Assembly (NCBI GenBank): GCA_031257295.1
Contig: JAIROX010000006.1
Span: 15,392 to 79,391 of the forward strand
Direction of reading: 5' to 3'
DNA: 64,000 nucleotides
DNA from: Candidatus Nomurabacteria bacterium
Lineage (GTDB): Bacteria; Patescibacteriota; Saccharimonadia; Saccharimonadales; Saccharimonadaceae
Shown one piece after another: positions 4,501-46,537 of this stretch (its first letter is position 1; each line of letters starts with the position of its first letter). Both the position numbers and the translations under genes were made by a program. The notes under the pieces are model-generated. The model was not told where the DNA came from. It worked only from the letters and a program-made list of their open reading frames with translations, and searched no databases.

Positions 4501-4829
4501 CGCTGGCAGTCGAGCCGTCTGTTCCTGTGCGGGCCGGGTATAAGTTCCTCGGCTGGCAGGGCGCGGTAACTACTTGCAATGGCTGGAATGCGGTTTTGGA
4601 CGAAGGCACAGCTTGTACTACCACTGTAGAAATGTGGGATTTTACCTCCGCGCGGGCGTATGCTGATGTTAAATTGACGGCGTTGTGGGAGGAAATCACG
4701 CCTGACGCGCCAAATACTGGGCTAGAGCAGCAAGCCGCAAACGCTTCTGCTAGCACGCCAGCAGCCGTCGGATTACTATTTGCACTTATACTAATTAGGC
4801 GGCATCTACTTAGTAAAAGACGCGCTTAA
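1584..4829 (+). CDS. giant secreted beta-helix repeat surface protein (Pmp-like Gly-rich repeats, Listeria-Bacteroides repeat, sortase-like PNTG sorting signal)
   Basis: N-terminal signal or anchor MKYYKILTGIVLALVITSAAATLFINKQSAQA. More than 20 degenerate repeats of the type N-x-[AT]-x(3-6)-GGG-[IVA], as in polymorphic-membrane-protein or parallel beta-helix adhesins. The C-terminus carries VKFDVNG...AGYKFLGWQG...VKLTALWEE, then PNTG (4710-4721), a hydrophobic helix and an RRHLLSKRRA tail. The ORF track starts at GTG 1572; ATG 1584 gives the canonical signal-peptide start. Confidence 0.85.
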   Translation: MKYYKILTGIVLALVITSAAATLFINKQSAQAAVSLTASNEAELKAAFANADTNIDITITADFELSTATTEGNRTVKNGKNITIHSDGTLRTIKRSASYAGRMILVQNGTLTLKDITIDGNKAGTSGLADVNTMILVGKSGSIADKGTLNIEPGATLQNNTATAGDSSKSAGAVVVREASTVNMSGGLITGNTGADRDTGGAFLFSDGDPGMSTPGMEMTFNMTGGEISGNTIRTKGGGGVYFQDKGSANGSNITITGSAKIINNIATNSGISNGAGGVGGGLFFSGNNKMNIEIGGSAEISGNTAGSNGGGLAINSQSNNGINLTVKDNAKFTGNTSNDGKGGGIYAENVDVRIQDNVEITDNTSTGGGGINLSGSQRGFVEIEGPVKINGNKVNIENPGSNNYGGGGVKLSGSNQHISIENGAQINNNDVYADNDWSGKGGGVYVSSCNDMYMYDSQVNGNITGNNSTNYWYHGANGGGIYFYGDYCNSSSTPNDARTLEIHNSQINNNTSGGQGGGIYTRVANLTFDNSQMNGNKARDNGGGIELHNWAWGSSYNMPSVNFTGDFQINNNIADLDEDGVGDGGGIFVNGWSGSSNFAINLSSGQINGNKAVGGGGIHFVVSGQNNHISTLTLGGNVQVNNNTAYTPEGMTNWSDAQGGAIELSSNSGWSLHITDNAQLTGNTAGWNGGAIHIGGLYNSSLLIDGNPNISGNKTLGTGCGSSGYGCYGTTGGGAIFIGGMGGTASADIGGNVKIDNNQAVNGFGGAIRVLNSPDGLYINDNAEICGNSAAYGGAISEHSGSVVYISGDVKLCDNVADVNGGAINLNFDSNSSVYMQDHVEIVDNTAGADGGGIWTEYPGLRGAYISGPGQDHTVVDVVDNKLTNVYVESGVKFWDNTAQAGYIMTDSADIATHGAQIGLVQYSWDFPYAYNNYDISYLSSDIKHVARVKFDVNGASSPTPATQYYWRENRSLAVEPSVPVRAGYKFLGWQGAVTTCNGWNAVLDEGTACTTTVEMWDFTSARAYADVKLTALWEEITPDAPNTGLEQQAANASASTPAAVGLLFALILIRRHLLSKRRA

Positions 4830-4852
4830 TCAACTTGTGCTAGAATGTAAAT

Positions 4853-5254
4853 ATGATTAGACACACTATTCTTAGAGCGCGGCGAGCACGCAAGATTGAT
4901 GCTGAATATAAAGTGTTTAGACATAAGCATCGCAACTGCACGTTTTGCACAATCAGCACTGGCGACGACAACGAGATCGTAAGCGAAACTAAGCATTTTT
5001 ATATCATTAAAAATCGTTTCCCGTACGAGGTCCTGGACGGTAGCAAAGTAACCGATCACCTGTTAGTTGTGCCCAAAGACCACTTTTTAGAGCTGCGAGA
5101 CATGACACCCAGCGAGCGCAAAACACTAGTAGAAGTTTTAGCTAAATATGAAAAAAAAGGTTATTCATTCTTTGGCCGGTCGCAAGCTGATACTGGCAGG
5201 TCTATGATACATCAGCATACACATCTGATAAAAACTGAAGACAAGAGTAAGTAA
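4853..5254 (+). CDS. HIT (histidine triad) family protein
   Basis: C-terminal histidine triad HQHTHLI; 133 aa. TGcTAGAAT extended -10 at 4838-4846 lies 6 nt upstream of the ATG with no SD, so the mRNA is probably leaderless. Confidence 0.8.
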   Translation: MIRHTILRARRARKIDAEYKVFRHKHRNCTFCTISTGDDNEIVSETKHFYIIKNRFPYEVLDGSKVTDHLLVVPKDHFLELRDMTPSERKTLVEVLAKYEKKGYSFFGRSQADTGRSMIHQHTHLIKTEDKSK

Positions 5255-5257
5255 TTA

Positions 5258-5450
5258 TTGATCTTCTTGCGTCGATACGCTATAATATCCAATAGTTGCC
5301 AAAGACAGTAGCTGTTTTGAGGAGACTCAAGGCTTAATCTGCTACCGAGGAAATATCTTTTTAAAGTGTTTTGGTGACCACGGCGAGTAGCCGTGATTCT
5401 GGTATATTAACAATTAGCCGATAAGAAAACTTAACCAAAAGGAGTAATTT
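5258..5450 (+). promoter_or_regulatory. rplJL promoter plus long structured 5' leader (candidate L10-leader autoregulatory RNA)
   Basis: TTGATC (5258-5263), 17-nt spacer, TATAAT (5281-5286). The leader is about 160 nt with nested helices: GTAGC (5308-5312)/GCTAC (5341-5345) encloses a 6-bp stem 5316-5321/5326-5331 capped by a GAGA tetraloop. A second hairpin is CACGGC (5379-5384)/GCCGTG (5390-5395). AAGGAG SD at 5439-5444. The class assignment comes from position and architecture only. Confidence 0.5.
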
Positions 5451-6011: not shown

Positions 6012-6395
6012 ATGGCAGATATTAAGAAATTAGCTGAAGAGCTAACCAAACTAACTGTTTTAGAAGTAAATGAATTAAAAAATGTCCTTAAGGACGAATA
6101 CGGCATTGAGCCCGCTGCAGCCGCTGTGGCTGTTGCTGCTGGCCCAGCTGCTGGTGGTGAAGCCGCCGCTGCCGACGAAGGCAAGAGCGAATACACCATT
6201 AGTCTGAAAGACGCTGGCGCGCAGAAGATCGCCGTCATCAAGGCCGTTAAAGAAATCACAGGCCTAGGCCTGGGCGAAGCTAAGGCTATCGTCGATGGCG
6301 CTCCAGCCAACGTAAAGGAAAACGTTCCTAAAGACGAGGCCGAGACCATTAAAAAGACACTGGAAGAAGCTGGCGCAACCGTCGAGTTGGTATAG
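6012..6395 (+). CDS. rplL: 50S ribosomal protein L7/L12
   Basis: 127 aa with an N-terminal dimerisation helix, an Ala/Gly/Glu hinge ([22 protein letters not shown]) and the C-terminal domain [27 protein letters not shown]...[10 protein letters not shown]. Confidence 0.95.
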
Positions 6396-6432
6396 CATCA
6401 CAAACATCGGCTAATTAAATTACCAGGCTAAA

Positions 6433-6456
6433 CGCACCCCGATAGGGGTGTTTTTA
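6433..6456 (+). terminator. Rho-independent terminator after rplL
   Basis: CACCCC (6435-6440), GATA loop, GGGGTG (6445-6450), then T5 (6451-6455). Confidence 0.75.
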
Positions 6457-6535
6457 GTGTCTACGTAAAAAATACAACAAAACTGAAGCTACAACTGTTT
6501 ACCTTGTGGAAAAGCTAAAATCTTTATGTTTTTTA

Positions 6536-6564
6536 TTGACTTTTCTTGGCCCACCTGGTATATA
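6536..6564 (+). promoter_or_regulatory. Near-consensus sigma70 promoter
   Basis: TTGACT (6536-6541), 17-nt spacer, TATATA (6559-6564). It lies inside the 5' end of the track ORF 6546..7124, which argues for the downstream ATG at 6606. Confidence 0.65.
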
Positions 6565-6605
6565 TGAGGTATATCATTACAAAAACAGACAAGGAAGCGA
6601 GAGAA

Positions 6606-7124
6606 ATGTCTGAGTTACCAGAGAAACAAGCAAAACGCCTCAAGACGTTGATTCAAGAGGCCGAGATCAAGTTGGCAGCGGCCAAAGAGTTATTGATGAG
6701 TATACTTGGCGAAGAAGAAGTCGACGGTTCAGCCAGGCAGGCGGCTGTTGAAAGCTTAAGCGGCAAGGTTGTTGAAGGTATATTTGACGGCCAAAACATG
6801 ATCGACGGCGATGGCAAAAATTACCCAGTGCCAGTCAACTACGCTAGTAAATCTAAGCTGGTTGAAGGTGATATCATGAAGCTAACCATCACCGAAGAGG
6901 GGAAGTTAGTATATAAGCAGATTGGCCCGGCCCCGCGCAAGCAGCTGATTGGCACGCTAATTAGTCATGATGGCCAGTATTTTGTAGAGGTCAGCGGCAA
7001 AGAATATAAGATCTTGCTGGCAACCGTAACATACTTTAAGCTAACCATAGGCGATCAAGTCACTATTATCATACCCGAAGACAACCCAGACGCTGTTTGG
7101 GCGGCTGTTGAAGCAAAATTATAG
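6606..7124 (+). CDS. hypothetical protein (coiled N-terminus plus two small beta-rich modules)
   Basis: ATG 6606 is preceded by AAGGAAG. The product MSELPEKQAKRLKTLIQEAEIKLAAAKELL... contains no motif I recognise. The track's TTG start at 6546 overlaps the promoter. Confidence 0.65.
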   Translation: MSELPEKQAKRLKTLIQEAEIKLAAAKELLMSILGEEEVDGSARQAAVESLSGKVVEGIFDGQNMIDGDGKNYPVPVNYASKSKLVEGDIMKLTITEEGKLVYKQIGPAPRKQLIGTLISHDGQYFVEVSGKEYKILLATVTYFKLTIGDQVTIIIPEDNPDAVWAAVEAKL

Positions 7125-7130
7125 TTAGTT

Positions 7131-8003
7131 ATGGTAACATTGTTTACTTATTTTAGCTTTGATAAAGATGGTCGACCCTACTATCGCCTAACAGATGGTA
7201 GTGGAGAGATATCTACACATATCATTAAGTACGACGAAGACTTAACACTTGAATTCGACCAGACAAGGCGTTTTTGCACAGGCGGTCACGACCTTGGCAC
7301 TTATGATTCGTGGGCTTGCCCGACCCACGCAGAAGTCGACAAAAAGTACGAACAATGCAAGCAGTGTATGGACAAAACTGGTTTTAACCCAGCGTTCTAC
7401 TATTCTGATGAGATCTCCGATCAACAGGCCGAATACAATCAGCAACCGCATAACCTATACTTGGCGTACTTCGATGATGGCAACCTTAAAGTTGGTATAT
7501 CACATACTAGACGCGGTTTGGCCCGACTGCTGGAACAGGGTGCCAGAGCGGCAATCGTGCTCGATGAGTTCACTTCGGCTAATGTGGCCAGACAATACGA
7601 AGCTAAAATAGCACGGCTAGATTGGGTGAACGAAAACGTTAAACTAAGCAAGAAGATTGATATTTTAGGATGCCTAGAGTACGACCCCGGTCATGCAGCC
7701 TCACAGCTAAAGACCGCGAAGCATAGAATTGATAGCGAGCTAGGAGTCACATTGGGGTCAGATGAAGTTATAGATCTAAACAGGTTCTACGGTGATACTA
7801 CTTCACTGAAAAACTTGAATGATATGAGTGAGCAGGGTGTGATAAGTGGTAAGATACTAGCCTGTGTTGGCTCAATCTTGATAGCTGAAAACGACGGCGA
7901 AAAGCTGTTGCTTCCTATCAAAAAGTTTGTTGGTTACAACGCGACCATTTCTGATGGTGTAAAATCGGTGGAGTTAGCGCCCAAGCAGTTCTCACTCTTC
8001 TAG
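7131..8003 (+). CDS. hypothetical Cys/His-cluster protein, possibly DUF2797-like
   Basis: 290 aa. It has a Cys/His cluster FCTGGHDLGTYDSWACPTHAEVDKKYEQCKQCMDKTG and a central motif YLAYFDDGNLKVGISHTRRGLARLLEQGARAAIVL. The family name is from memory of that motif pattern and was not verified. Confidence 0.6.
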   Translation: MVTLFTYFSFDKDGRPYYRLTDGSGEISTHIIKYDEDLTLEFDQTRRFCTGGHDLGTYDSWACPTHAEVDKKYEQCKQCMDKTGFNPAFYYSDEISDQQAEYNQQPHNLYLAYFDDGNLKVGISHTRRGLARLLEQGARAAIVLDEFTSANVARQYEAKIARLDWVNENVKLSKKIDILGCLEYDPGHAASQLKTAKHRIDSELGVTLGSDEVIDLNRFYGDTTSLKNLNDMSEQGVISGKILACVGSILIAENDGEKLLLPIKKFVGYNATISDGVKSVELAPKQFSLF

Positions 8004-8024
8004 ACGTGTAGTATACTATTGTAT

Positions 8025-9545
8025 ATGGGGAAGGCGCTGTACCGGAAATACCGGAGTAAGTCTCTTAGTGAGATAATTGGTCAAAAACATGTGACTGATA
8101 TTTTAAGTGCGGCTCTAAAAAAGGGGAGGGTTAGCCACGCCTACTTGTTCACTGGCCCACGCGGTGTTGGTAAAACCAGCGTAGCGCGTATTTTGGCACA
8201 TGAAATCAACGAGTTGCCCTACACCGAGGAAGATTCGCACCTAGATATCATTGAGATTGATGCTGCTAGCAATAACGGCGTAGATGATATTCGTAACCTG
8301 CGCGAAAAGGTGATGATAGCACCAACTAGTGCTAAAAAGAAAGTTTATATTATCGATGAAGTGCATATGCTCAGCAAACCAGCCTTTAATGCGCTGCTCA
8401 AAACACTCGAGGAACCGCCCGAACATGTAGTGTTTATCATGGCCACCACCGACGCGCACAAGATACCAGCCACAATCGTGAGCCGTTCACAGCAGTTTAC
8501 TTTTCGATTCATCTCAACCGAAGACGCCGTCAAGCACCTGCGCACCATTGCCGATAAAGAGAGTATCAAGATTAGTGATGAAGCGCTAGCGCTGATTGCT
8601 AAAAAAGGTGGAGGGAGTTTCCGCGATAGTATTAGCCTGCTCGATCAAATTTCGTCGCTACTCAGCGATAAAGAAATCAGCAAGGCCGACGCAGAAAACG
8701 CGCTAGGCTTGGCTTCTGAAGAGCTGGTCGCTAGTTTGCTGACTAGCCACGCGGCAGGTAATAGCTCAGAGTCCATTAAAATTCTGCAACAGCTGCTCGA
8801 AACTGGTGCCAAGCCCGAAACCATCGCCGAACAGCTAATGAAATATATCATATATGATATAGATACCAACCTGCACCTCTTGAGCTTGTTGGACAAGCTG
8901 CCAGAAGTAGCGCGTTCTAGTTATCCAGAGGTTAAGTTATTGACTATCCTAGCAGGCCTGCCACCAGTCGTTCCAACCGCAAATTCCTCGCGCAACAGCG
9001 CCCAGCCACTAAAAATTGGCAATCCTGCTCCAAGTGTTCGCACTATGCCAATTTCTAATCAAGTTGAGCGCTCTGGATCGTCACAAAGCTCTGAAACAAC
9101 TGGCGACAAGTCCAACCACAGCGAGGAGAGAGATGAGTTGGGAGGAGAGAGTGAACCCGAAACTAACACTAGTTCTGGGCGGTCGGCTTTTGCAGAAGGC
9201 AAAAACGTTCGGCTTGAAGGGCAGAACAGTACTAGTGAGGGCGGAACAGTCTTCAGCTGGGACGCCCTGCTAGAGGATATCAAAGAAAACCGACCAGCCA
9301 TCTACACGATTCTCAGTAAATGCGGCCACAAGCTAAACGGCGACGAGCTGGAGGTTTATGCTAAAAATAAGCTTTGGAAGAACAAGCTCGACACGGCAGC
9401 TTTTCGCAAGCGCGTAGCTGATGCTGGAGGTACAAATCTAGAAGTGACCGTGCTAGCCAAAGCCGCACCAACTGGGAATGGTGCTGTTGACACGGTAGCT
9501 GATATAATGGGAGGTGGAGAAGAGGTTGAGCTAGATGCCGAGTAG
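8025..9545 (+). CDS. dnaX: DNA polymerase III subunit gamma/tau
   Basis: Walker A GPRGVGKTS, Walker B IIDEVHML and the clamp-loader sensor region ATTDAHKIPATIVSRSQ. TATACT at 8012-8017 lies 7 nt upstream of ATG 8025. The track start at TTG 8019 is less likely. Confidence 0.92.
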   Translation: MGKALYRKYRSKSLSEIIGQKHVTDILSAALKKGRVSHAYLFTGPRGVGKTSVARILAHEINELPYTEEDSHLDIIEIDAASNNGVDDIRNLREKVMIAPTSAKKKVYIIDEVHMLSKPAFNALLKTLEEPPEHVVFIMATTDAHKIPATIVSRSQQFTFRFISTEDAVKHLRTIADKESIKISDEALALIAKKGGGSFRDSISLLDQISSLLSDKEISKADAENALGLASEELVASLLTSHAAGNSSESIKILQQLLETGAKPETIAEQLMKYIIYDIDTNLHLLSLLDKLPEVARSSYPEVKLLTILAGLPPVVPTANSSRNSAQPLKIGNPAPSVRTMPISNQVERSGSSQSSETTGDKSNHSEERDELGGESEPETNTSSGRSAFAEGKNVRLEGQNSTSEGGTVFSWDALLEDIKENRPAIYTILSKCGHKLNGDELEVYAKNKLWKNKLDTAAFRKRVADAGGTNLEVTVLAKAAPTGNGAVDTVADIMGGGEEVELDAE

Positions 9546-10884
9546 CGAGAATAAGGCAAAGGTACCACCACAAAACATAGACGCCGAGAAAAGTCTGCTC
9601 GGTGCAGTTTTGATTGACGAAGAAGTTTTGCCGGACGCCACTGAGGCGGTTAAGGCAGTGGATTTTTACGACAAAACTCATCAGGCCATATTCGACGGTA
9701 TGCTCGGCTTATACGAAAAACATAAGCCGGTTGACTTACTTACCTTGACGGATGAACTAAAAAAGAAAAAACAACTCGACGTCGTAGGTGGATCAAGTTA
9801 CTTAACAGAGCTAACTAACTATGTGCCCACTTCAGCGCATGCCCAGGCTTACGCCGAAATCATAGCCAAGTGCGCCGTACGTCGCCGCTTGATTAAAGCT
9901 AGTGCCGACATTACCGAGCTGAGCTACGACGAAGATAGCGAAGTTACCGAGCTACTGGGTAAGGCCGAGGCAGAGCTATTTAGCGTTTCCGACCAGTCGC
10001 TCAAACAAGATCTCACCAGTATGGAGGATATCCTAAATGCCAGTTTTGACCGCCTAGAAGAACTACACAAAAACAAAGGCGCTATCCGCGGCCTTAAAAC
10101 CGGCTACCGCGATCTTGATAACAAAACCGCTGGGTTGCAAAAATCTGACCTGATTATCATCGCCGCTCGTCCGGCCATGGGTAAAACTACTCTAGTAACT
10201 AACCTAGCTTACAATGTGGCAACCATCAGCAAAAAGGCCGTACTGTTCTTTAGCCTCGAGATGAGTAAAGAGCAACTAATCGACCGCATGTTGGCTGACG
10301 CTTCGGGAGTGGATAGTTGGAATATCAGAACTGGTAATTTAAGTGATGATGATTTTAGCAAGATTAGCGACGCCATGGGCGAGATGGCTGAAGCACCGAT
10401 ATTTATCGACGACACCCCTGGTATGACCGTAATGGAGATGCGCACCAAAGCCCGCCGAGCTGCGCACGATAATGAGCTCGGGTTAATCGTTATTGACTAC
10501 TTGCAGCTGATGCAGGGTTCAGGGCGTTCGGGCAACGAGTTTAACCGTGTGCAAGAGGTGAGTGAAATCAGCCGCGGGCTGAAATTGATTGCTCGTGAGC
10601 TCGATGTGCCAGTTATTGCGTTAAGCCAGCTCAGCCGTTCAGTAGAAAGCCGTAGCCCGCAAATCCCACAATTAGCAGATCTACGTGAATCCGGCTCTAT
10701 CGAGCAGGACGCCGACCTGGTGATGTTTATTTACCGCGAAGATTACTACAACCCCGACACCGAGCGGCAACATATTACCGATCTAATTATCGCTAAGCAT
10801 CGTAACGGCCCAACTGGCAAAGTGGAGCTCTACTTCCACCCAGAACGCCTGCGCTTTATGTCGCTTGACAAAGGTAAGGAATAG
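9535..10884 (+). CDS. dnaB: replicative DNA helicase DnaB
   Basis: N-terminal PPQNIDAEKSLLGAVL, Walker A AARPAMGKTT, then SLEMS, IDYLQLM, ALSQLSR and IIAKHRNGPTG. Overlaps the dnaX stop by 11 nt. Confidence 0.95.
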   Translation: MPSSENKAKVPPQNIDAEKSLLGAVLIDEEVLPDATEAVKAVDFYDKTHQAIFDGMLGLYEKHKPVDLLTLTDELKKKKQLDVVGGSSYLTELTNYVPTSAHAQAYAEIIAKCAVRRRLIKASADITELSYDEDSEVTELLGKAEAELFSVSDQSLKQDLTSMEDILNASFDRLEELHKNKGAIRGLKTGYRDLDNKTAGLQKSDLIIIAARPAMGKTTLVTNLAYNVATISKKAVLFFSLEMSKEQLIDRMLADASGVDSWNIRTGNLSDDDFSKISDAMGEMAEAPIFIDDTPGMTVMEMRTKARRAAHDNELGLIVIDYLQLMQGSGRSGNEFNRVQEVSEISRGLKLIARELDVPVIALSQLSRSVESRSPQIPQLADLRESGSIEQDADLVMFIYREDYYNPDTERQHITDLIIAKHRNGPTGKVELYFHPERLRFMSLDKGKE

Positions 10885-14262: not shown

Positions 14263-14520
14263 ATGGCAACAAAAGCAGAACGAGGGTTCATTGCCGGTGC
14301 ACTTGACAAGGTGATAGGCTCAGGGAGTGTTAAAACTTTAACTAGCAAGGACGGTACTGAGTATCTTGTGCTACTCAGCGCTTATCAGGACGGTTTCGGC
14401 GTTCTGTGGTACAAAAAACGCTTTCTATGCGCTCAGTGTCACAGAAAACGGCCGGCACGGTCGCGCCCTAACCGTCAAAAGGGTATTGGTGTTGGACGTC
14501 GATCAAGGGGAGGTGAGTAA
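14263..14520 (+). CDS. small hypothetical protein; C-terminal third may be out of frame (A6 tract at 14413-14418)
   Basis: GGAAGAGAGG SD lies upstream of ATG 14263. After the A6 run the annotated frame becomes Arg-rich (KKRFLCAQCHRKRPARSRPNRQKG...). The other frame stays open to 14539 and reads as an ordinary globular sequence. Confidence 0.55.
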   Translation: MATKAERGFIAGALDKVIGSGSVKTLTSKDGTEYLVLLSAYQDGFGVLWYKKRFLCAQCHRKRPARSRPNRQKGIGVGRRSRGGE

Positions 14521-14522
14521 CA

Positions 14523-15092
14523 ATGAATCTCCCAAATAAATTAACTACCATAAGAATGCTGGTAGTTCCAGCATTCTTCGTACTGTTTCAGTACGAAGAA
14601 TACGGTTGGGCGGTCGGCGTGTTTATTGCCGCCGCTATCACCGACAAGATCGACGGAATGCTAGCCCGCAAGCGGGGCCAAACTACAACCTACGGAAAGC
14701 TAATGGACCCGGCGGCAGACAAGATACTCACAAACGTGGCCCTACTTTGTCTGTGTATGGTCCATGCTGTACCGGTGTGGATTTTCGCAATCTTTCTGGC
14801 GCGTGACGCTTTGATTGATGGCTTAAAAAGCCTTGTGGCTACAGAAAGCGCAAAGGAAGAAAGCGAGGCAAAAGTTATAGCCGCCAGCAAGACGGCGCAG
14901 TTAAAAACATTTATTCAAATGTTTGCAGCAGCGTTCCTGCTGTTCTGGCTCGCCATACCTAGCGAACCCGCATGGCTTAGCAAAACCATCTGGGTACTGG
15001 GTTATGTGCAGCTTTACGCATCGCTGATACTCTGTCTCTGGTCAGCCGAAGAATACCTCTATGGTAACCGGCACTATATAAAAACGAAGTGA
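14523..15092 (+). CDS. pgsA: CDP-alcohol phosphatidyltransferase (PgsA-like)
   Basis: The signature D-x2-DG-x2-AR-x8-G-x3-D-x3-D is present as DKIDGMLARKRGQTTTYGKLMDPAADKI. The protein has multiple TM helices. Confidence 0.9.
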   Translation: MNLPNKLTTIRMLVVPAFFVLFQYEEYGWAVGVFIAAAITDKIDGMLARKRGQTTTYGKLMDPAADKILTNVALLCLCMVHAVPVWIFAIFLARDALIDGLKSLVATESAKEESEAKVIAASKTAQLKTFIQMFAAAFLLFWLAIPSEPAWLSKTIWVLGYVQLYASLILCLWSAEEYLYGNRHYIKTK

Positions 15093-26366: not shown

Positions 26367-28190
26367 ATGCAAATCACAACCGATAAGATTCGCAACATTG
26401 CGATAATTGCTCACGTTGACCACGGCAAAACCACCATGGTAGATGGCCTGCTGAAGCAAAGCCACACTTTTCGCGACAACCAAGCCGAGATGAGTGAAAA
26501 GCTCATCATGGACAGCGGCGACCAAGAACGCGAGCGCGGCATCACCATAACTGCTAAGCAAACTACGATTTATCACGACGACCACAAAATTAATATTATT
26601 GACACGCCAGGCCACGCCGATTTTTCGGGCGAGGTAGAACGCACGCTCAACATGGCCGACGGTGTGATGCTGATTGTCGACGCCGCCGAGGGCCCCATGC
26701 CGCAGACCAAGTTTGTGCTTAGTAAAGCCCTCGAGCTAGGGCTAAAACCCATTGTAGTTATCAACAAAATCGACAAACCAGCTCGCCGAATCGAAGAAGT
26801 AAAAGGCGAAATTGAAGACTTATTCTTAGAACTTGCCACCAGCGACGACCAGCTGCACTACCCGATCTACTACGCCATTGGTCGCGAAGAAAAGGCTTGG
26901 GCCGAGTTGCCCGACAACCCCGAACAACACGCCGACTTGTCCGTGATTTTTGACGCTATCATCAACCAAATCCCCGCGCCAGAAGCCAAGGCCGGCGGCC
27001 TGCAAATGCTGGTTACCAGCCTGCAATACGATTCGTTCGTGGGCAAATACGCCATCGGCAAAGTTAGCCGCGGCAAAATCGCTCGCTCCGCGCCTATCAA
27101 ATTAGTGCAAACTTCGGGCGAGGCGATTAGCGCAAAAGTTGACAAACTTTTTGTGTTCCGTGGGCTAGTTAAAGAAGAAATCGACGAGGCAGTTTGCGGC
27201 GACATTGTGGCTGTAACTGGTGTAGGCGAGGCGCACATTGGTGAAACCATTGCCGACTTTGACAACCCCGAAGCCCTGCCAGTTATGAAACTTGAACAAC
27301 CTACGCTCAGTATGTACTTAGGGCCAAACACCAGCCCATTTAAGGGGCGCGAAGGTGACTACACCACCAGCCGGCAAATTGGCGACCGCTTGCAGCGCGA
27401 GCTCGAAACCAACGTAGCCCTGCATGTCGAAGATAACGGAATCGGCTTTAAGATTAGCGGCCGCGGCGAGCTGCACCTGTCGGTTCTAATCGAAACCATG
27501 CGCCGCGAAGGCTACGAGTTCGAAGTTGGCCGGCCCGAGGTTGTAACGATCCAAAAAGACGGCAAGACTATGGAGCCGGTCGAAGATTGCATCATAGAAG
27601 TTGGCCAAGAGTTTGTGGGCGCGGTTAGCCAAGCCTTGGGTGTGCGGCGCGGCGTGCTAAAAAACCAAGAAGCCACCAGCCAGGGCGCAGCGCGCATGGA
27701 GTACAAGATTCCAACTCGCGGGCTGATTGGCCTGCGCAACCAGCTACTTACCGCTACCAAAGGCACCGTTATTATTAATTCTTTACCCGCCGGCTACGAG
27801 CCAATGGGGACCGCAATGCCTAAAAATCGCAATGGCGCACTGGTAGCGTTCGAGCCTGGCGCAACCACTACTTACGCACTAGCTAACGCCGAAGCCCGCG
27901 GTGAACTATTTGTCGGCCCGGCGGTCGAAGTTTACGCCGGCATGGTGATTGGCCAAAACAACCGCCAAGAAGATCTAGAGGTGAACGTTTGCAAAGGCAA
28001 ACATCTCACCAACATGCGCGCCAGCGGCAGCGACGGTGCTGTACAGCTCACGCCGTACACAGAACTCAGCCTAGAGCAGTGCATAGATTTTATAGCCAAC
28101 GACGAGCTGCTTGAAGTTACGCCCAAAAACTTGCGTCTCAGAAAGCGCATTCTGGACCCGACTTTACGTAAACGAGCCAACAAAACATAG
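26367..28190 (+). CDS. typA: translational GTPase TypA/BipA
   Basis: G1 [10 protein letters not shown]3 DTPGHADF, G4 NKID. The 607-aa length and EF-G-like domain order are those of TypA. Confidence 0.95.
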
Positions 28191-28193
28191 CAC

Positions 28194-28223
28194 TTGACAA
28201 TCAGTCGGATATCTCCGTATAAT
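28194..28223 (+). promoter_or_regulatory. consensus sigma70 promoter of a stand-alone non-coding unit
   Basis: TTGACA (28194-28199), 18-nt spacer, TATAAT (28218-28223). It begins 4 nt after the typA stop. Confidence 0.7.
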
Positions 28224-28284
28224 TCTAATAGTTATTTTCTTTTTTGGAAGGTAACTAAACAAAAAATAATAGGAGGATCAGGCT

Positions 28285-28332
28285 ATGACCCAATTATTGT
28301 TTTTTGCGAGTGCAAGTAGTTTACTTAGCTAA
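28285..28332 (+). CDS. 15-codon ORF (MTQLLFFASASSLLS) with strong SD, inside the candidate RNA
   Basis: AGGAGG (28271-28276) lies 8 nt before the ATG at 28285, and TAA is at 28330-28332. Its codons 9-12 form the 5' strand of the long-range helix. Confidence 0.35.
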   Translation: MTQLLFFASASSLLS

Positions 28333-28512
28333 TTGGGCACGCCACCATTGCAAGGTGATATGCACAAAATCTAATTAAAGGTGCCATGCGAAGCAAATCG
28401 CTTAGCGAGCCGTGGTAGCGGCAAATTGGTACTAGGATGAAAAACAGAGACGACAATCTGCGCTCCAGGACACATGTTAGCTGCAGCGTGTCCGCTACTT
28501 GCAAACTACCTG

Positions 28513-28555
28513 AAAACGCCCAGAGCGCCGTCAACGCAAAGGGCGTTTTTGTTTT
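28513..28555. terminator. strong terminator (works for the + unit; also lies downstream of the converging flavodoxin gene)
   Basis: AAAACGCCC (28513-28521) pairs with GGGCGTTTT (28541-28549). TTTTTGTTTT follows on the + strand. Confidence 0.8.
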
Positions 28556-28564
28556 ATCACAAGC

Positions 28565-28978
28565 CTAACTCTCAAATTCTTTAATAATTCCCGCCGCCCA
28601 ACTACGAGCATCCTCACGCTGTCCAGCGCTAGGCTTCGACTTATGGCTTAGGCCCATTTTGGCCAGATAAACATCATCAAAAAACTTAATGCCTTTTAAC
28701 CCCAGAGCTTTAGTAATGGCCTTAACCGGTGTACGACTTAGCCCAGACGTACCAAACACCGCTACGTAACCAACCTTATCAGAGTCTAGGTTATTGATAA
28801 ATTCTACCAAGCTATCATCGAGTTTAAACCCATAAACCGCGCCACCCAAAAATAACAGGTCCGCACCCTCAAACGGCTCAGTCACGCTGTGCGCTTTCAC
28901 GCCCGCCACCTCGGCCACAGTTTCGGCAATCGTCTTAGTATTGCCACCCCTGCTTTGATAGTAAACTTCTATATCCAC
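28565..28978 (-). CDS. short-chain flavodoxin
   Basis: 137 aa. The N-terminal FMN phosphate loop is YYQSRGGNTKTIAE, and the pattern of an alpha/beta fold follows. Confidence 0.85.
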   Translation of the reverse strand: MDIEVYYQSRGGNTKTIAETVAEVAGVKAHSVTEPFEGADLLFLGGAVYGFKLDDSLVEFINNLDSDKVGYVAVFGTSGLSRTPVKAITKALGLKGIKFFDDVYLAKMGLSHKSKPSAGQREDARSWAAGIIKEFES

Positions 28979-28987
28979 GCTCGCTCC

Positions 28988-29464
28988 TTACTTGTTCTGT
29001 AGGATAACTAGCTCCACGCCAGCACCTACGAACAGATCTTTTGACTCCGTACTTTCATGGTAATCGTCTTTAACAATAACTCGCTTGATACCAGAATTGA
29101 CAATCACCATAGCGCAATCACGACATGGGCACATTCCACAATAAAGTGTACCGCCATCAATACCTATGCCATTTTTTGCAGCTTGTAAAATAGCGTTAAC
29201 TTCGGCGTGCACTGTGCGCTTACAATGGATACTAACATGACCGTCGGAGTGTTTAACCTCTTTGATTAGACAACCCACCTCATCACACTGGGCGGCACCA
29301 CGTGGCGCACCAGCATAACCAGTCGAGAGCAGCACGTTATCGCGTGCGATCACACAACCGGGCTTGCCCCTGAGACAAGTGCTACGTTTACCAACCGCCT
29401 CCACAATGTTTAAAAAATATTCATCCCAACCTGGGCGAGTTTGCTTGGTTTCTTTCGCTACCAT
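28988..29464 (-). CDS. deoxycytidylate (dCMP) deaminase
   Basis: Zinc motifs VHAEVNAI and PCRDCA; 158 aa. Confidence 0.9.
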   Translation of the reverse strand: MVAKETKQTRPGWDEYFLNIVEAVGKRSTCLRGKPGCVIARDNVLLSTGYAGAPRGAAQCDEVGCLIKEVKHSDGHVSIHCKRTVHAEVNAILQAAKNGIGIDGGTLYCGMCPCRDCAMVIVNSGIKRVIVKDDYHESTESKDLFVGAGVELVILQNK

Positions 29465-29475
29465 TTCGTCACTCC

Positions 29476-30495
29476 TTATACTACTAACATACTATCACCA
29501 TAGCTGAGAAATTTATAGTCATGGACTAGCGCATACTCGTAGGCTGGCTTTAGCTTGCTCCAGCCCGCAAAGGCGGCTGTGAGCATGAGTACTGTCGATT
29601 TTGGCGCGTGAAAGTTGGTTAACAACACGTCGACAACCTTGAAATCGTAGCCAGGATAGATGAATATGTCGGCCTCGCCAGTCGTAAGGCCTTGCGGCAA
29701 GGCGTATTCTAGTGTGCGCGCTACTGTCGTGCCAACTGCTACTACTCGACCGCCAGCGGACTTAGCCTGGGCGATTGCCGTGATAGTGCCGTCGGGAATT
29801 GTAAAATACTCCGCATGCATTTTGTGGCTCTCGATTGTCTCAACGCGGATGGGCAAGAATGTGCCCAGTCCAACATGCAAAGTGAGATGGCGGACCTTTA
29901 CACCTTTGATTTTCAACTTTGCAATGGTTTCCTTGGTCATATTAAGACTAGCTGTTGGCGCCGCCGCCGAGCCAGCTTGGTCGGCAAAAACCGTTTGGTA
30001 ACGCTCCACGTCCGCCGGTGTAGCGTCGCGGTTCATATAGGGAGGCAGAGGAGGCGAACCATACTCTTCAGTTAGCATCAGCAGGTCAGTGTTCGAAGCA
30101 ATGATCGCTAAGCCATCACCCAAAACCCCTTCTACCACAAGTTCCGCCGACCGCAGGTCTGCAAGCCGCAACTTATCGCCAGCCTTTAGCGACCCACGAT
30201 ACATCACCCTGTGCCTGCGCCAATCGTCATCGCCAGCGTGACGTTCTAATATAACAATCTCACGTCCAACACCATTCATCTTCACAACCTTGAGCCGCGA
30301 CTTCATGACGCGCGTGTCATTCAGCACCACCACATCACCAGCCTGCAAAAACTCTGGCAAGTCGCCATAGTGCCTATCTTGCAGCTCGCCGGTCACATGG
30401 TCTACCACCAACAGCCGCGACGCACCGCGCACCTTGGGCGGGTGAGTAGCAATCACCGAATCTGGCAAGTCGTAATTAAAATCAGACACTTTCAT
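29476..30495 (-). CDS. queA: S-adenosylmethionine:tRNA ribosyltransferase-isomerase
   Basis: MKVSDFNYDLPDSVIATHPPKVRGASRLLVV and LHVGLGTF motifs. TGaTACTAT (30511-30503 on the minus strand) lies 7 nt upstream of ATG 30495. The track start at 30504 falls inside that -10 element. Confidence 0.93.
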   Translation of the reverse strand: MKVSDFNYDLPDSVIATHPPKVRGASRLLVVDHVTGELQDRHYGDLPEFLQAGDVVVLNDTRVMKSRLKVVKMNGVGREIVILERHAGDDDWRRHRVMYRGSLKAGDKLRLADLRSAELVVEGVLGDGLAIIASNTDLLMLTEEYGSPPLPPYMNRDATPADVERYQTVFADQAGSAAAPTASLNMTKETIAKLKIKGVKVRHLTLHVGLGTFLPIRVETIESHKMHAEYFTIPDGTITAIAQAKSAGGRVVAVGTTVARTLEYALPQGLTTGEADIFIYPGYDFKVVDVLLTNFHAPKSTVLMLTAAFAGWSKLKPAYEYALVHDYKFLSYGDSMLVV

Positions 30496-30559
30496 TACAA
30501 TCATAGTATCAAATCTGTATCCATGTTAAAATGACGGCAGTAGTTAAAAGAGGGTAGTC

Positions 30560-36605: not shown

Positions 36606-36690
36606 TTGACATAACCATATATAGCGGCTTATAATTATTCCCACACACCATATATAGCGTTTGTGACAAGCAGGACACTATATATAGCGT
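36606..36690 (+). promoter_or_regulatory. nrdDG promoter with three NrdR-box-like operators
   Basis: TTGACA (36606-36611), 18-nt spacer, TATAAT (36630-36635). The boxes are CCATATATAGCGG (36615-36627), CACCATATATAGCGT (36646-36660) and ACACTATATATAGCGT (36675-36690). The TATATAGCG cores start at 36618, 36651 and 36681. They match the published NrdR palindrome acaCwAtATaTwGtgt. Confidence 0.75.
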
Positions 36691-36731: not shown

Positions 36732-39074
36732 ATGTATAAATCTATCCGGAAGCGGGATAACCGAACCGTCAGCTTCAAGCCCGAAAAAATAACTAGCGCG
36801 CTCACCAAGGCCGGTATGGCAACAGAAGAGTTTGACGCCAAAAAAGCCAAAGAGCTAACGAACAAAGTTTTAGAACGTGCCGAAAAAGAAATTAAAGCCA
36901 AGATCCCAACTGTTGAGCAGCTGCAAGATATCGTGGAAGAAGTTTTGATGCAGTCAAAGTACAAGAAGACGGCTCGGGCTTATGTATTATATCGCAACGA
37001 ACGCAGCCGGATTCGTAACTCTAAAAGCCGCCTAATGAACACCTACAAGACAATCGCGCACGCCATGGCAAAAGATGACGCCGACGACATTAAACGCTCT
37101 AACGCCAACGTAGATAGTGACACGGCTATGGGCAAAATGCTGCAGTTTGGCGCTGAAGGCAGTAAAGAGTTTACTAAAACATTCCTAGTTAAACCCGAAC
37201 ATGCTACCGCTCACGATGATGGCGACCTTCACATTCATGACCTGGATTTTTATGCCACAGGTACGCTAACTTGCTGTCAAACTGATCCACTGAGGCTATT
37301 TGAGCACGGTTTTAACACTGGTCACGGCTTCTTGCGCACGCCGAACAGTATAGGTAGTTACGCCGCCCTAGCTGCAATTATTTTGCAAGCCAACCAAAAT
37401 GAGCAACACGGTGGCCAGAGTATCCCGAACTTTGACTACGCCATGGCAGAAGGCGTCAACAAAACCTACCGCAAATGCGTAAAGGCAAATGCTGAAAAAT
37501 TCAGCGAGTTCACCGGCAAGGCCATCAAGCTAGATGAGAAAAAGTTAGCTGAGCTAACTTATGGCCAAACCGTCAAAAATGTAGATGACGTAGTCTTCAA
37601 CCAAGCCAAAAAAGATACCGACAAGCAAACCTTTCAGGCTATGGAAGGGTTGGTACACAACCTTAACACCATGCACTCACGAGCTGGCGCACAAGTGCCG
37701 TTTACGTCTATCAACTTCGGCACCGACATCACGCCAGAAGGCCGGCTGGTCTCGGAAGCTTTCCTGGAAGCTACCGCCAAAGGCTTAGGGCGCGGCGAAA
37801 CCCCGATTTTCCCAATCTCGGTCTTTAAAGTCAAAGAGGGCGTTAACTATAACCCAGAAGATCCGAATTACGACCTATTTAAAAGATCAATGGAAGTTAG
37901 CAGCAAGCGCTTGTTCCCGAACTTCGTATTCCTAGACGCGCCGTTCAACTACCAGTTCTATAAACCAGGACGTCCCGAAACTGAGTGCCCAACTATGGGG
38001 TGTCGCACTCGCGTCATGTCGTCAGTTTTTCCAGAAAGCAACGGTATCGCATTTGGTCGTGGCAACACTTCATTTACCACCATCAATTTACCTCGTCTTG
38101 GCATTAAGCACGGTATCGCCCTGGGTCAGCGCGGCGAGGCCGACTGGGATGGGTTTTATCGAGACTTAGATAAAATGGTTAACTTAGCAGCCGATCAGCT
38201 ATTAGAACGCTTTGAGTTCCAGGCTTCTAAAACCGTTAAAAATTTCCCATTCCTAATGGGGCAGGGCGTATGGATGGGCAGTGACAAGCTTGGTCCAAAC
38301 GATACATTACGTGACGTTATCAAACATGGCTCCTTGTCGATTGGCTTTATCGGCCTGGCCGAAACTTTGAAGGCCATGCTGGGTCAGCATCACGGCGAGT
38401 CCGAAGAAGCCGAGGAACTTGGCGTAGAGATCATTGGCCACATGCGTGATCGTATTGATGAGTTAGCCAAAAAACATCAGCTCAACTTTAGCTTGCTAGC
38501 AACACCCGCTGAAGGTATAGCTGGGCGATTTACCAAGATCGACCGCGCCGCAGTAGGTGAAATCGAAGGCGTAACCGACCGCGAGTTCTACACCAACTCG
38601 TTCCACGTGCCTGTCTACTACAATATTGGAGCGGCTAATAAAATAGCCAAAGAAGCACCGTTTCATGAACTCTGCAACGCGGGCCATATTACTTATGTTG
38701 AGCTCGACGGCGACCTGTCGCAAAACATCGACGCCTTTGAGTCAATCATTAAGAACATGCGCGAAGCCGGTATCGGCTATGGTAGTATCAACCACCCCGT
38801 AGATCGCGACCCAGTTTGTGGTTTTGCCGGGATAATCGAAGGCGATACCTGCCCATCCTGTGGCAGACACGAACGTGACGGTGAGTTTGGTTTTGAACGC
38901 CTGCGCCGCATTACTGGCTACTTAGTTGGGTCACTGGAGCGCTGGAATGACGCCAAGCAGGCTGAAGAGTCCGCCCGTGTCAAACATAACGTAGCCGGAG
39001 TCTACACTAAACAAGAAAAGTCTGATCGCGAAGTCGCTAAAAAGAGCCAGAAAAAAGCTGTCGGAAAGGCTTAA
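36732..39074 (+). CDS. nrdD: anaerobic ribonucleoside-triphosphate reductase (class III)
   Basis: N-terminal ATP-cone (IRKRDNRTVSFKPEKITSAL). C-terminal zinc site CGFAG...CPSCG and glycyl-radical motif RRITGYLVG. Confidence 0.95.
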   Translation: MYKSIRKRDNRTVSFKPEKITSALTKAGMATEEFDAKKAKELTNKVLERAEKEIKAKIPTVEQLQDIVEEVLMQSKYKKTARAYVLYRNERSRIRNSKSRLMNTYKTIAHAMAKDDADDIKRSNANVDSDTAMGKMLQFGAEGSKEFTKTFLVKPEHATAHDDGDLHIHDLDFYATGTLTCCQTDPLRLFEHGFNTGHGFLRTPNSIGSYAALAAIILQANQNEQHGGQSIPNFDYAMAEGVNKTYRKCVKANAEKFSEFTGKAIKLDEKKLAELTYGQTVKNVDDVVFNQAKKDTDKQTFQAMEGLVHNLNTMHSRAGAQVPFTSINFGTDITPEGRLVSEAFLEATAKGLGRGETPIFPISVFKVKEGVNYNPEDPNYDLFKRSMEVSSKRLFPNFVFLDAPFNYQFYKPGRPETECPTMGCRTRVMSSVFPESNGIAFGRGNTSFTTINLPRLGIKHGIALGQRGEADWDGFYRDLDKMVNLAADQLLERFEFQASKTVKNFPFLMGQGVWMGSDKLGPNDTLRDVIKHGSLSIGFIGLAETLKAMLGQHHGESEEAEELGVEIIGHMRDRIDELAKKHQLNFSLLATPAEGIAGRFTKIDRAAVGEIEGVTDREFYTNSFHVPVYYNIGAANKIAKEAPFHELCNAGHITYVELDGDLSQNIDAFESIIKNMREAGIGYGSINHPVDRDPVCGFAGIIEGDTCPSCGRHERDGEFGFERLRRITGYLVGSLERWNDAKQAEESARVKHNVAGVYTKQEKSDREVAKKSQKKAVGKA

Positions 39075-42651: not shown

Positions 42652-42726
42652 TGGGTCGTCGCCAAGTGGTAAGGCACCGGGTTTTGGTCCCGGCATTCGC
42701 AGGTTCGAGTCCTGCCGACCCAGCCA
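42652..42726 (+). tRNA. tRNA-Gln (anticodon UUG), CCA encoded
   Basis: Acceptor stem TGGGTCG/CGACCCA. Anticodon stem CCGGG/CCCGG with loop TTTTGGT. T-arm GCAGG-TTCGAGT-CCTGC, then discriminator G and CCA. The promoter is TTGCCC (42611-42616), 17-nt spacer, TGcTATAAT (42631-42639). Confidence 0.93.
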
Positions 42727-45871: not shown

Positions 45872-45902
45872 AACGAGAACGCCCCGCCTTTACAGGCGGG
45901 GC
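45872..45902 (-). terminator. terminator after the lipoprotein gene
   Basis: GCCCCGCC (45881-45888) pairs with GGCGGGGC (45895-45902). GTTCTCGTTTC follows on the minus strand. Confidence 0.7.
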
Positions 45903-45919
45903 TGATACCTAAGTCTGCT

Positions 45920-46537
45920 TTACTTAGGTATTTCAATAAGCTCTCTTATTTTCAGTAGCTCAGCATACTGAGCTACTGAGATGGAGCCATCTCCGGCAGC
46001 GGCGCTGTACTTGTCGTACGTAGCGCCATCCAAGGCGAAATCGGTGGCCTCAGCCAAACGGTTGACCGTGGCCTGCATTATGACCTCGCGCCCCTCTTTG
46101 CCCTCAGGCGGAACCACTATCATGTCTAGTGGCGCCAGACGTACGGTAATCATATCTTCCAGCTGTAATCGCTTATCAGATGAAAGCATGATGCCGCTGT
46201 TTATGACTCCAGTCGCATCCGGCTTGGGCTCTACATAATTGCCATGCTCCTGGCTGTCGCCAGGCGCTATCTTGATGACCTGCTGTAGGTCAGCAGGCTT
46301 GTCGAACTTGACTGTATAGCCTCTTTTATCGACGACTACCTCATAGCTATCGAACTGAGCTATGCTGGCGACAAGTTCGCCAATCTCAAATAACCTAGCA
46401 GCCTCGTCCCGATCAACGCCCGCAACCTCATAGGTTACTGGCGGATCCGCCAAGGCCGCGGGCTCATTTTTAGCCCCACAAGCCGAGAGAGTAAAAATCA
46501 AAATAGAAAACAACAACACTGTAAAAAGCTTCTTCAT
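45920..46537 (-). CDS. lipoprotein, function unknown
   Basis: Signal peptide with the lipobox LSAC (MKKLFTVLLFSILIFTLSACG). GGAGG SD. Confidence 0.8.
   Translation of the reverse strand: MKKLFTVLLFSILIFTLSACGAKNEPAALADPPVTYEVAGVDRDEAARLFEIGELVASIAQFDSYEVVVDKRGYTVKFDKPADLQQVIKIAPGDSQEHGNYVEPKPDATGVINSGIMLSSDKRLQLEDMITVRLAPLDMIVVPPEGKEGREVIMQATVNRLAEATDFALDGATYDKYSAAAGDGSISVAQYAELLKIRELIEIPK

Follow-up and report, generated by a model that had tools for sequence, protein, structure and literature searches.

What lies in the gap between typA and the neighboring flavodoxin gene, and does it encode an RNA? The two genes converge and are separated by 374 nt, from the end of typA at 28190 to the end of the flavodoxin ORF at 28565, as described in the first-pass annotation of this DNA. 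If a spurious antisense ORF is discounted, the gap is the longest non-coding stretch of the 64-kb window, by which we mean the whole stretch of DNA that was analysed. The window is approximately 94% coding, and its median gap is 23.5 nt. The first-pass annotation interpreted the gap as a stand-alone transcription unit for a novel structured RNA. The signals of such a unit, a promoter, a 5' hairpin, a ribosome-binding site with a short ORF, an RNA body, and a terminator, are present in the sequence, but the strong claim of a novel RNA fails.

Genes flanking the gap

The genes next to the gap are:

26367..28190, plus strand: typA, translational GTPase BipA/TypA (ORF and Pfam families; 100% identity to the typA of an NCBI/JGI MAG)
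28565-28978, minus strand: flavodoxin (ORF, Pfam)
28988-29464, minus strand: dCMP deaminase comEB (ORF, Pfam)
29476..30504, minus strand: intact queA (ORF, Pfam; its 3' end adjoins typA in relatives)

The TypA of the window is 100% identical to that of a MAG labelled "Candidatus Nomurabacteria", and its next relatives are Saccharimonadales MAGs. The source of the window is a CPR bacterium allied to Saccharimonadales. No sense ORF of at least 60 aa is present in the gap downstream of the promoter, in agreement with the first-pass annotation. The antisense strand contains an ORF of 69 aa, which starts from a TTG within the terminator loop. It was rejected as a real gene, having no relative in Pfam or among 1.84e9 representative proteins. 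The typA gene lacks a terminator of its own ahead of the element, and therefore its read-through transcripts would also stop at 28512-28555. Further along the strand, 1.9 kb of sequence antisense to fld-comEB-queA follows. A co-directional gene is missing, in line with the earlier remark that the unit has no downstream gene to regulate.

The gap contains the following elements:

28193..28219, minus strand: putative queA relic, the last ~9 codons of an ancestral copy (19/27 and 18/27 syntenic matches)
28194..28223, plus strand: sigma-70-type promoter TTGACA-N18-TATAAT (12/12 consensus match)
28230..28256, plus strand: H1, predicted 11-bp hairpin at the 5' end of the predicted transcript (MFE, pair probabilities 0.89-1.0; -9.1 kcal/mol)
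28260..28306, plus strand: H2, predicted 13-bp A/U-rich stem with inner pairs (p >= 0.94; -13.5 kcal/mol)
28285..28332, plus strand: mini-ORF of 15 codons, MTQLLFFASASSLLS and TAA, with an AGGAGG Shine-Dalgarno (SD) sequence upstream
28311..28503, plus strand: predicted 193-nt multi-branch domain (closing helix p 0.71-0.99; -61.5 kcal/mol; single-sequence prediction)
28512..28555, both directions: predicted intrinsic terminator, 10-bp G/C-rich stem with an inner 3-bp helix (-17.7 kcal/mol)

Promoter and its putative origin from a queA relic

The promoter noted in the first-pass annotation is present and matches the consensus in all 12 positions. The 64 kb contain two perfect TTGACA-N16-18-TATAAT sites where 0.04 would be expected, and the site at 28194-28223 is clearly beyond chance. 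Transcription is predicted to start at ~28230 and to produce an RNA of ~320 nt. No minus-strand site resembling a promoter at 9/12 positions or better was found in 28190-28565.

The other perfect promoter, at 36606, drives nrdD (36732-39074) and is located within the upstream segment 36606-36731. Three repeats of ACCATATATAGCG / ACACTATATATAGCG overlap and trail it, and look like NrdR boxes. Because of its position in front of nrdD and the NrdR-box-like repeats, we consider it a real regulated promoter.

TypA-anchored orthologous loci were compared in nine relatives (species genomes L001-L004 and L020, and public assemblies L028-L031). In L028 (TypA 90%) and in L029 and L030 (both 87%), only 0-4 bp separate typA from the 3' end of queA. 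In L001 (TypA 88%), an HD-domain gene (4790-5422, 210 aa, minus strand) is positioned between typA and queA, and in this clade insertions seem to recur at the convergent typA/queA junction. The neighborhood differs in L031 (TypA 82%) and in the relatives at ~75%. The 374-nt region is absent from the syntenic site in L001, L028, L029, L030, and L031. The ancestral arrangement thus reconstructed from the sequences appears to be typA converging on queA with almost no spacer.

Directly after the typA stop, the segment 28193-28219 resembles the 3' end of queA. It is identical at 19 of 27 positions to L029/L030 (11829-11855) and at 18 of 27 to L028 (at 11821). The match is syntenic and is the best for the 27-mer in each locus on either strand, with a per-position binomial p between roughly 1e-6 and 2e-5. 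On the minus strand, the segment encodes LYGDIRLIVK, compared with SYGDSMLIV* at the C-terminus of QueA. The similarity extends into the -10 box for its first two bases and no further, and the relic supplies the -35 box, the spacer, and these two bases. The ancestral queA end already fits 8 of the 12 promoter positions (TAGACA ... TAGCTG). We infer that the promoter is a hybrid, in which the -35 box would be the old stop-codon region with a single change (TAGACA to TTGACA), and the -10 box would straddle the junction. Apart from forming the 12/12 promoter, the relic has drifted at 8 of 27 positions. The promoter probably arose recently from the queA relic, and the one observation that points to this origin is the 27-nt syntenic match.

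Putative insertion into the typA/queA junction

The queA relic after the typA stop, together with the gap of 0-4 bp between typA and queA in the relatives, argues for an insertion into the ancestral junction. The sequence comparison suggests that an insert of ~1.26 kb, comprising the RNA body, flavodoxin, and comEB, entered ~30 nt within the former queA end, and that the intact queA end is now at 29476. The flavodoxin gene, comEB, and the RNA body belong to one inserted block. In 5.8e9 proteins, a single homolog of the flavodoxin is close (99%), and those ranking after it reach 40-44% identity. The contig neighbors of the 44% homolog are genes for radical-SAM, glycyl-radical enzyme, and aldo-keto reductase proteins, which is not Saccharimonadales-like. 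The flavodoxin was likely acquired horizontally, and this foreign protein (28565-28978) could be the electron donor for the activase of the anaerobic reductase encoded by nrdD. The comEB gene is native to the clade, being 75% identical to the L029 copy, and is located elsewhere in the relatives. In L029/L030, a block of CDP-OH transferase, CTP transferase, CorA, comEB, and HlyIII genes is positioned between the UDG gene and typA (6280-9964). The block is missing there in the window, where the transferase gene (14523-15092) is 12 kb away and comEB is across typA. The displacement of the two genes indicates that the neighborhood has been extensively rearranged.

The remaining 340 nt of the gap have no match to queA, to genes of the relatives or of the window, to Pfam, or to 5.8e9 proteins. 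The region is the remnant of a degraded gene, a possibility raised in the first-pass annotation, only in its first ~30 nt, which appear to be the queA relic, whereas the body (28224-28564) has no similarity to a gene. Assembly chimerism is unlikely, because TypA (100%) and flavodoxin (99%) are each reported on a 160,364-bp contig in an independent JGI/NCBI assembly. QueA mosaicism, examined as a sign of a recombination route, gave no clear signal. Integron attC-like core sites near the flavodoxin stop, inspected by eye, are at chance level.

Ribosome-binding site and mini-ORF

The SD sequence AGGAGG at 28271-28276 is located 8 nt ahead of the ATG at 28285. As described earlier, it would serve only the mini-ORF 28285-28332, and both the SD and the 15-codon ORF are confirmed. 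The encoded peptide has 15 residues, is hydrophobic, and contains no charged residues. Of the four AGGAGG-N5-10-ATG arrangements that the window contains, the three others are genuine gene starts; the SD-ATG pair is clearly beyond chance. In the frame after the mini-ORF, the density of stops is that of random sequence, with three in-frame stops in ~75 codons.

The mini-ORF could belong to a type I toxin mRNA, or be what is left of a decayed gene for a small protein (~75 aa) brought in by the insert. The peptide is hydrophobic and uncharged, the distance from the start codon to the terminator suits a small gene, and the SD is predicted to be hidden in a hairpin accompanied by long-range pairing, as in mRNAs of the hok/tisB type. 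However, 15 aa are too short for a membrane span, there is no antisense promoter in 28190-28565, and no frame is similar to any protein. The three in-frame stops in ~75 codons are what is expected at random, and would require a gene that has been dead for long while its signals stayed perfect. We consider this origin of the mini-ORF improbable.

Predicted fold and terminator

The minimum free energy of the region is -104.5 kcal/mol (z = -4.07). In a fold scan of 291 windows, the region ranks sixth, with five scoring better, and its predicted fold can be called moderately unusual. A fold of equal quality is predicted for the opposite strand (z = -5.6). Stronger hairpin clusters are present at several other intergenic spots of the genome, in which strong intergenic hairpins are common.

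The predicted transcript starts with H1, which may protect the 5' end. The following stem, H2, encloses the SD (28271-28276) and the start codon (28285-28287), both of which are predicted to be paired within it. Downstream, the 193-nt domain is closed in the minimum free energy fold by a 10-bp helix, 28311-28320 / 28494-28503, and has four sub-hairpins (~28321-28378, 28380-28433, 28435-28466, and 28468-28493). The 5' strand of the closing helix corresponds to codons 9-12 of the mini-ORF. A closed domain with at least three local hairpins and its 5' strand in the mini-ORF had been proposed before, and the prediction bears this out. The helix contains a perfect 9-bp inverted repeat, in which TGCAAGTAG (28311-19) pairs with CTACTTGCA (28495-503). 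This long-range helix of 9-10 bp, emphasized in the first-pass annotation, is present and closes the domain, but is not beyond chance on its own: one such helix occurs in 23% of dinucleotide shuffles, and three, as here, in 2.9%. For H1, H2, the closing helix, and the terminator alike, the pairs form with probabilities of 0.7-1.0.

The terminator stem is formed by arms 28512-21 and 28541-50, followed by TTTTTGTTTT. Its 9-bp core, AAAACGCCC / GGGCGTTTT at 28513-21 / 28541-49, precedes the T-run and corresponds to the terminator placed at 28513-28555 in the first-pass annotation, which is confirmed at -17.7 kcal/mol. Because an A-run flanks the terminator, it could act in both directions, ending transcripts of the unit and typA read-through on one strand, and those of the fld-comEB-queA operon on the other.

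Strong predicted structures are found at three other places in the window. The segment 11520-11580, between two divergent ORFs without a Pfam match, has the strongest fold z-score of the window (-6.9 to -11.6). It forms a long near-perfect hairpin with 16-nt perfect arms (11525-40 / 11562-77), which extends to ~20 bp with an inner G/C stem and is followed by a U-run. The segment 14263-14626 is predicted to be very strongly structured (z = -5.3 to -7.2) and matches nothing in Rfam. It includes an 85-aa ORF (14263-14520) that has no Pfam match and is located just upstream of the CDP-alcohol phosphatidyltransferase gene (14523-15092). The segment could be a structured leader or an RNA instead of a protein gene. 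Three strong hairpins of 9-13 bp each follow one another at 45880-45985 (z = -5.4 to -6.5), at and just past the 3' end of a minus-strand gene for a putative lipoprotein (45920-46537).

Absence of a predicted switch

The first-pass annotation regarded the unit as switch-like, on account of an alternative 8-bp pairing that overlaps the 3' strand of the long-range helix. The complementarity between GGTAGCGG (28414-21) and CCGCTACT (28492-99) exists, but its base-pair probability in the ensemble is 0.00. We blocked four spans of the SD/ORF region (within positions 42-106) in constraint folding to mimic a ribosome. The alternative helix formed in none of the four folds, even with the mini-ORF blocked. 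The terminator hairpin remained full in three folds, the fourth retained the six inner pairs of the hairpin, and an antiterminator helix was seen in none. The predictions give no support to switch-like behavior.

A leader-peptide attenuator was also considered, in which translation of the Leu/Phe/Ser-rich mini-ORF would gate read-through antisense into fld-comEB-queA, in the manner of riboswitch-controlled antisense RNAs. Near the 5' end of what would be a structured leader, the unit carries the 15-codon ORF and its strong ribosome-binding site. Part of this ORF coincides with the 5' strand of the closing helix, and the sole downstream feature on the strand is the antisense of the operon. Pairing of antiterminator and terminator that would be mutually exclusive depending on ribosome position was not seen in the folds, and the mini-ORF has no run of one regulatory codon. 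The absence of an antiterminator and of a regulated co-directional gene downstream leaves a switch or attenuator reading unsupported, and we regard attenuation as very improbable.

Searches for known families and homologs

The region has no match in Rfam 15 at gathering thresholds, and the only match in the window is tRNA-Gln at 42652. Membership in Rfam families, including 6S, T-box, riboswitches, and OLE/HEARO/ROOL, was not found. At E <= 10, the region has only sub-threshold chance matches, the best of which is to the terminator-like STnc310 on the minus strand (E = 0.08, 22.5 bits vs a threshold of 40). ARAGORN identified no tRNA or tmRNA in the region. The two programs agree with the earlier statement that signatures of tmRNA, RNase P, SRP, and tRNA-like molecules are missing, and the Rfam comparison, which had been proposed as a check, produced no confident match to a known class.

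No homolog of the region was detected by nhmmer in ~0.4 Mb of related typA-anchored loci, and a single-sequence covariance model of the 193-nt domain found nothing in the related loci. Weak nhmmer matches in L029/L030 at ~7370-7690 were noise on inspection. A pattern built on the ORF/helix segment under a joint coding and pairing constraint was scanned against metagenomes and gave two chance matches and no homolog. Pattern scans of viral contigs returned zero matches, and blastn against phages and plasmids found nothing. At the protein level, the region belongs to no Pfam family, and its six-frame concatenation has no match among 5.8e9 proteins. The body 28224-28564 was also examined as a pseudogene, and tblastx against the relatives and the rest of the window found nothing; local alignment with queA 3' regions showed no similarity. 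Since the searches for distant homologs consisted of exact patterns and of DNA near typA, they are insensitive to diverged non-syntenic copies. By these comparisons the region appears to be an orphan, in the sense of "none found" rather than of proven absence. When base pairing with putative targets was evaluated for 55 translation-initiation regions of the window, none stood out (best z = -1.9).

These results bear on the reading of the first-pass annotation, according to which the unit is the founding member of a conserved structured RNA class with switch-like regulatory architecture. The stable multi-branch fold (z about -4), the lack of an Rfam family match, and the strong promoter and terminator of its own speak for this reading. 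However, conservation in relatives, which the annotation itself had made a condition of its reading, was found neither at typA loci nor by nhmmer or the covariance model. The searched metagenome, viral, phage, and plasmid collections yielded no homolog, the syntenic site in the nearest relatives is without the region, and the protein databases contain no spurious ORFs from such loci. In addition, the alternative helix has a probability of 0.00, the terminator is kept under constraints, and the promoter appears to be recent. We therefore consider a founding member of a conserved class decidedly improbable, and a wider RNA class that is still unsampled would be very unlikely. The unit is outside any described RNA family, and a riboswitch-like switch is not borne out by the evidence.

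A proposed young transcription unit at an insertion scar

We favor, with moderate confidence, the reading that the gap holds a young stand-alone transcription unit, specific to its lineage at the level of strain or species, that originated at an insertion scar. The unit may represent a small mRNA or a dual-function sRNA with a masked ribosome-binding site. According to this model, an insertion would have carried the RNA body, the foreign flavodoxin, and the relocated comEB into the typA/queA junction. The leftover queA codons and the first bases of the insert would together form the perfect sigma-70 promoter. The promoter would fire at ~28230, and transcription would end at 28512-28555, yielding the ~320-nt RNA. 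H1 and the terminator hairpin may shield the two ends of the RNA. H2 would mask the strong SD and the start codon, so that the 15-codon ORF would be translated only once H2 opens. The rest is predicted to fold as the 193-nt multi-branch domain, the closing helix of which overlaps the end of the ORF. We infer the transcription of the unit, the stability of its RNA, its translation, and any cellular role from sequence and predicted structure.

Selection on the unit is suggested by three observations: the promoter is flawless within an otherwise drifting relic, an SD of this type elsewhere in the window marks real genes only, and the largest spacer survives in a very compact genome. Against the favored reading, purifying selection on the RNA body or the peptide lacks support, as no homolog was found, and a streamlined genome can still hold recent junk awaiting deletion.

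The latter consideration leads to the main rival reading, a non-functional insertion scar. In this reading, the 340-nt body is leftover donor DNA, the promoter, SD, and hairpins arose by chance or came along with it, and the sole useful part is the bidirectional terminator, which would serve typA and the fld-comEB-queA operon. The absence of the region from all relatives examined and of homologs from the collections searched agrees with a scar, as do the gene relic at the 5' end, the ancestral queA end that already fitted 8 of 12 promoter positions, the 9-bp helix that is not beyond chance, and the random stop density after the mini-ORF. Conversely, without selection a 12/12 promoter would hardly be expected in a relic that has otherwise diverged at 8 of 27 positions, and AGGAGG at ideal spacing to an ATG otherwise marks only real genes in the window. 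The scar would also exceed every other non-coding gap of a genome whose median spacer is 23 nt, and strong constitutive transcription of junk would come at a cost. We regard a functionless scar as possible but somewhat unlikely.

The young transcription unit that we favor can be extended to a case of early gene birth in a streamlined CPR genome. In such a case, a queA stump would have become a consensus promoter, which would then drive an abundant structured RNA that also encodes a 15-aa micropeptide, and the unit would be functional and under selection in this lineage. We put this forward tentatively, as a rather unlikely outcome. If expressed, the unit would be among the first candidate sRNA/micropeptide genes described in Saccharibacteria-like CPR bacteria, and a clean case in which a gene relic at an insertion scar supplied a promoter. 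The recruited promoter is the most interesting element of the locus, and a promoter derived from a relic bears on the birth of new transcripts in very small genomes. The locus is also cautionary: a perfect promoter, SD, and terminator together with a good-looking fold do not by themselves signal a new structured-RNA family.

Comparison with known systems

The leader-peptide attenuators pheL, trpL, and hisL have an ORF of 14-16 codons at the 5' end of a structured RNA with an intrinsic terminator. The unit described here is similar in that its ORF is at the 5' end of a predicted structured RNA and overlaps one strand of a helix. It differs in the lack of an antiterminator, of a run of a single regulatory codon, and of a downstream co-directional gene.

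The type I toxin mRNAs hok, tisB, and ibs encode a membrane-spanning hydrophobic peptide, typically of 19 aa or more. The unit resembles them in the predicted masking of the SD and start codon, in the long-range helix, and in the hydrophobic peptide. In contrast to these mRNAs, its peptide is too short to be a membrane-spanning toxin and has no charged tail, no promoter for an antisense antitoxin RNA was found in 28190-28565, and no homologs were detected.

RNAIII/hld and SgrS/SgrT are dual-function sRNAs. As in these and in Spot 42/SpfP, an independent promoter and an intrinsic terminator bound 100-500 nt, as predicted here from the sequence. Further shared features are several stable hairpins and a tiny ORF with its ribosome-binding site in a predicted structure. 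The unit has no sequence or structural homology to Spot 42, RNAIII, or SgrS, and it differs from dual-function sRNAs in having no conservation in the relatives compared and no predicted target among the 55 start regions examined. In the literature searched, we found no sRNA of this kind in CPR bacteria. The sRNA Spot 42 encodes the 15-aa protein SpfP (PMC8916003). The mini-ORF of the unit has the same length of 15 codons.

Young lineage-specific sRNAs with de novo or recruited promoters are a general concept. The unit would conform to it, since its promoter probably developed from a pre-existing near-match (8/12) and the insertion junction, and it is found in one lineage only.
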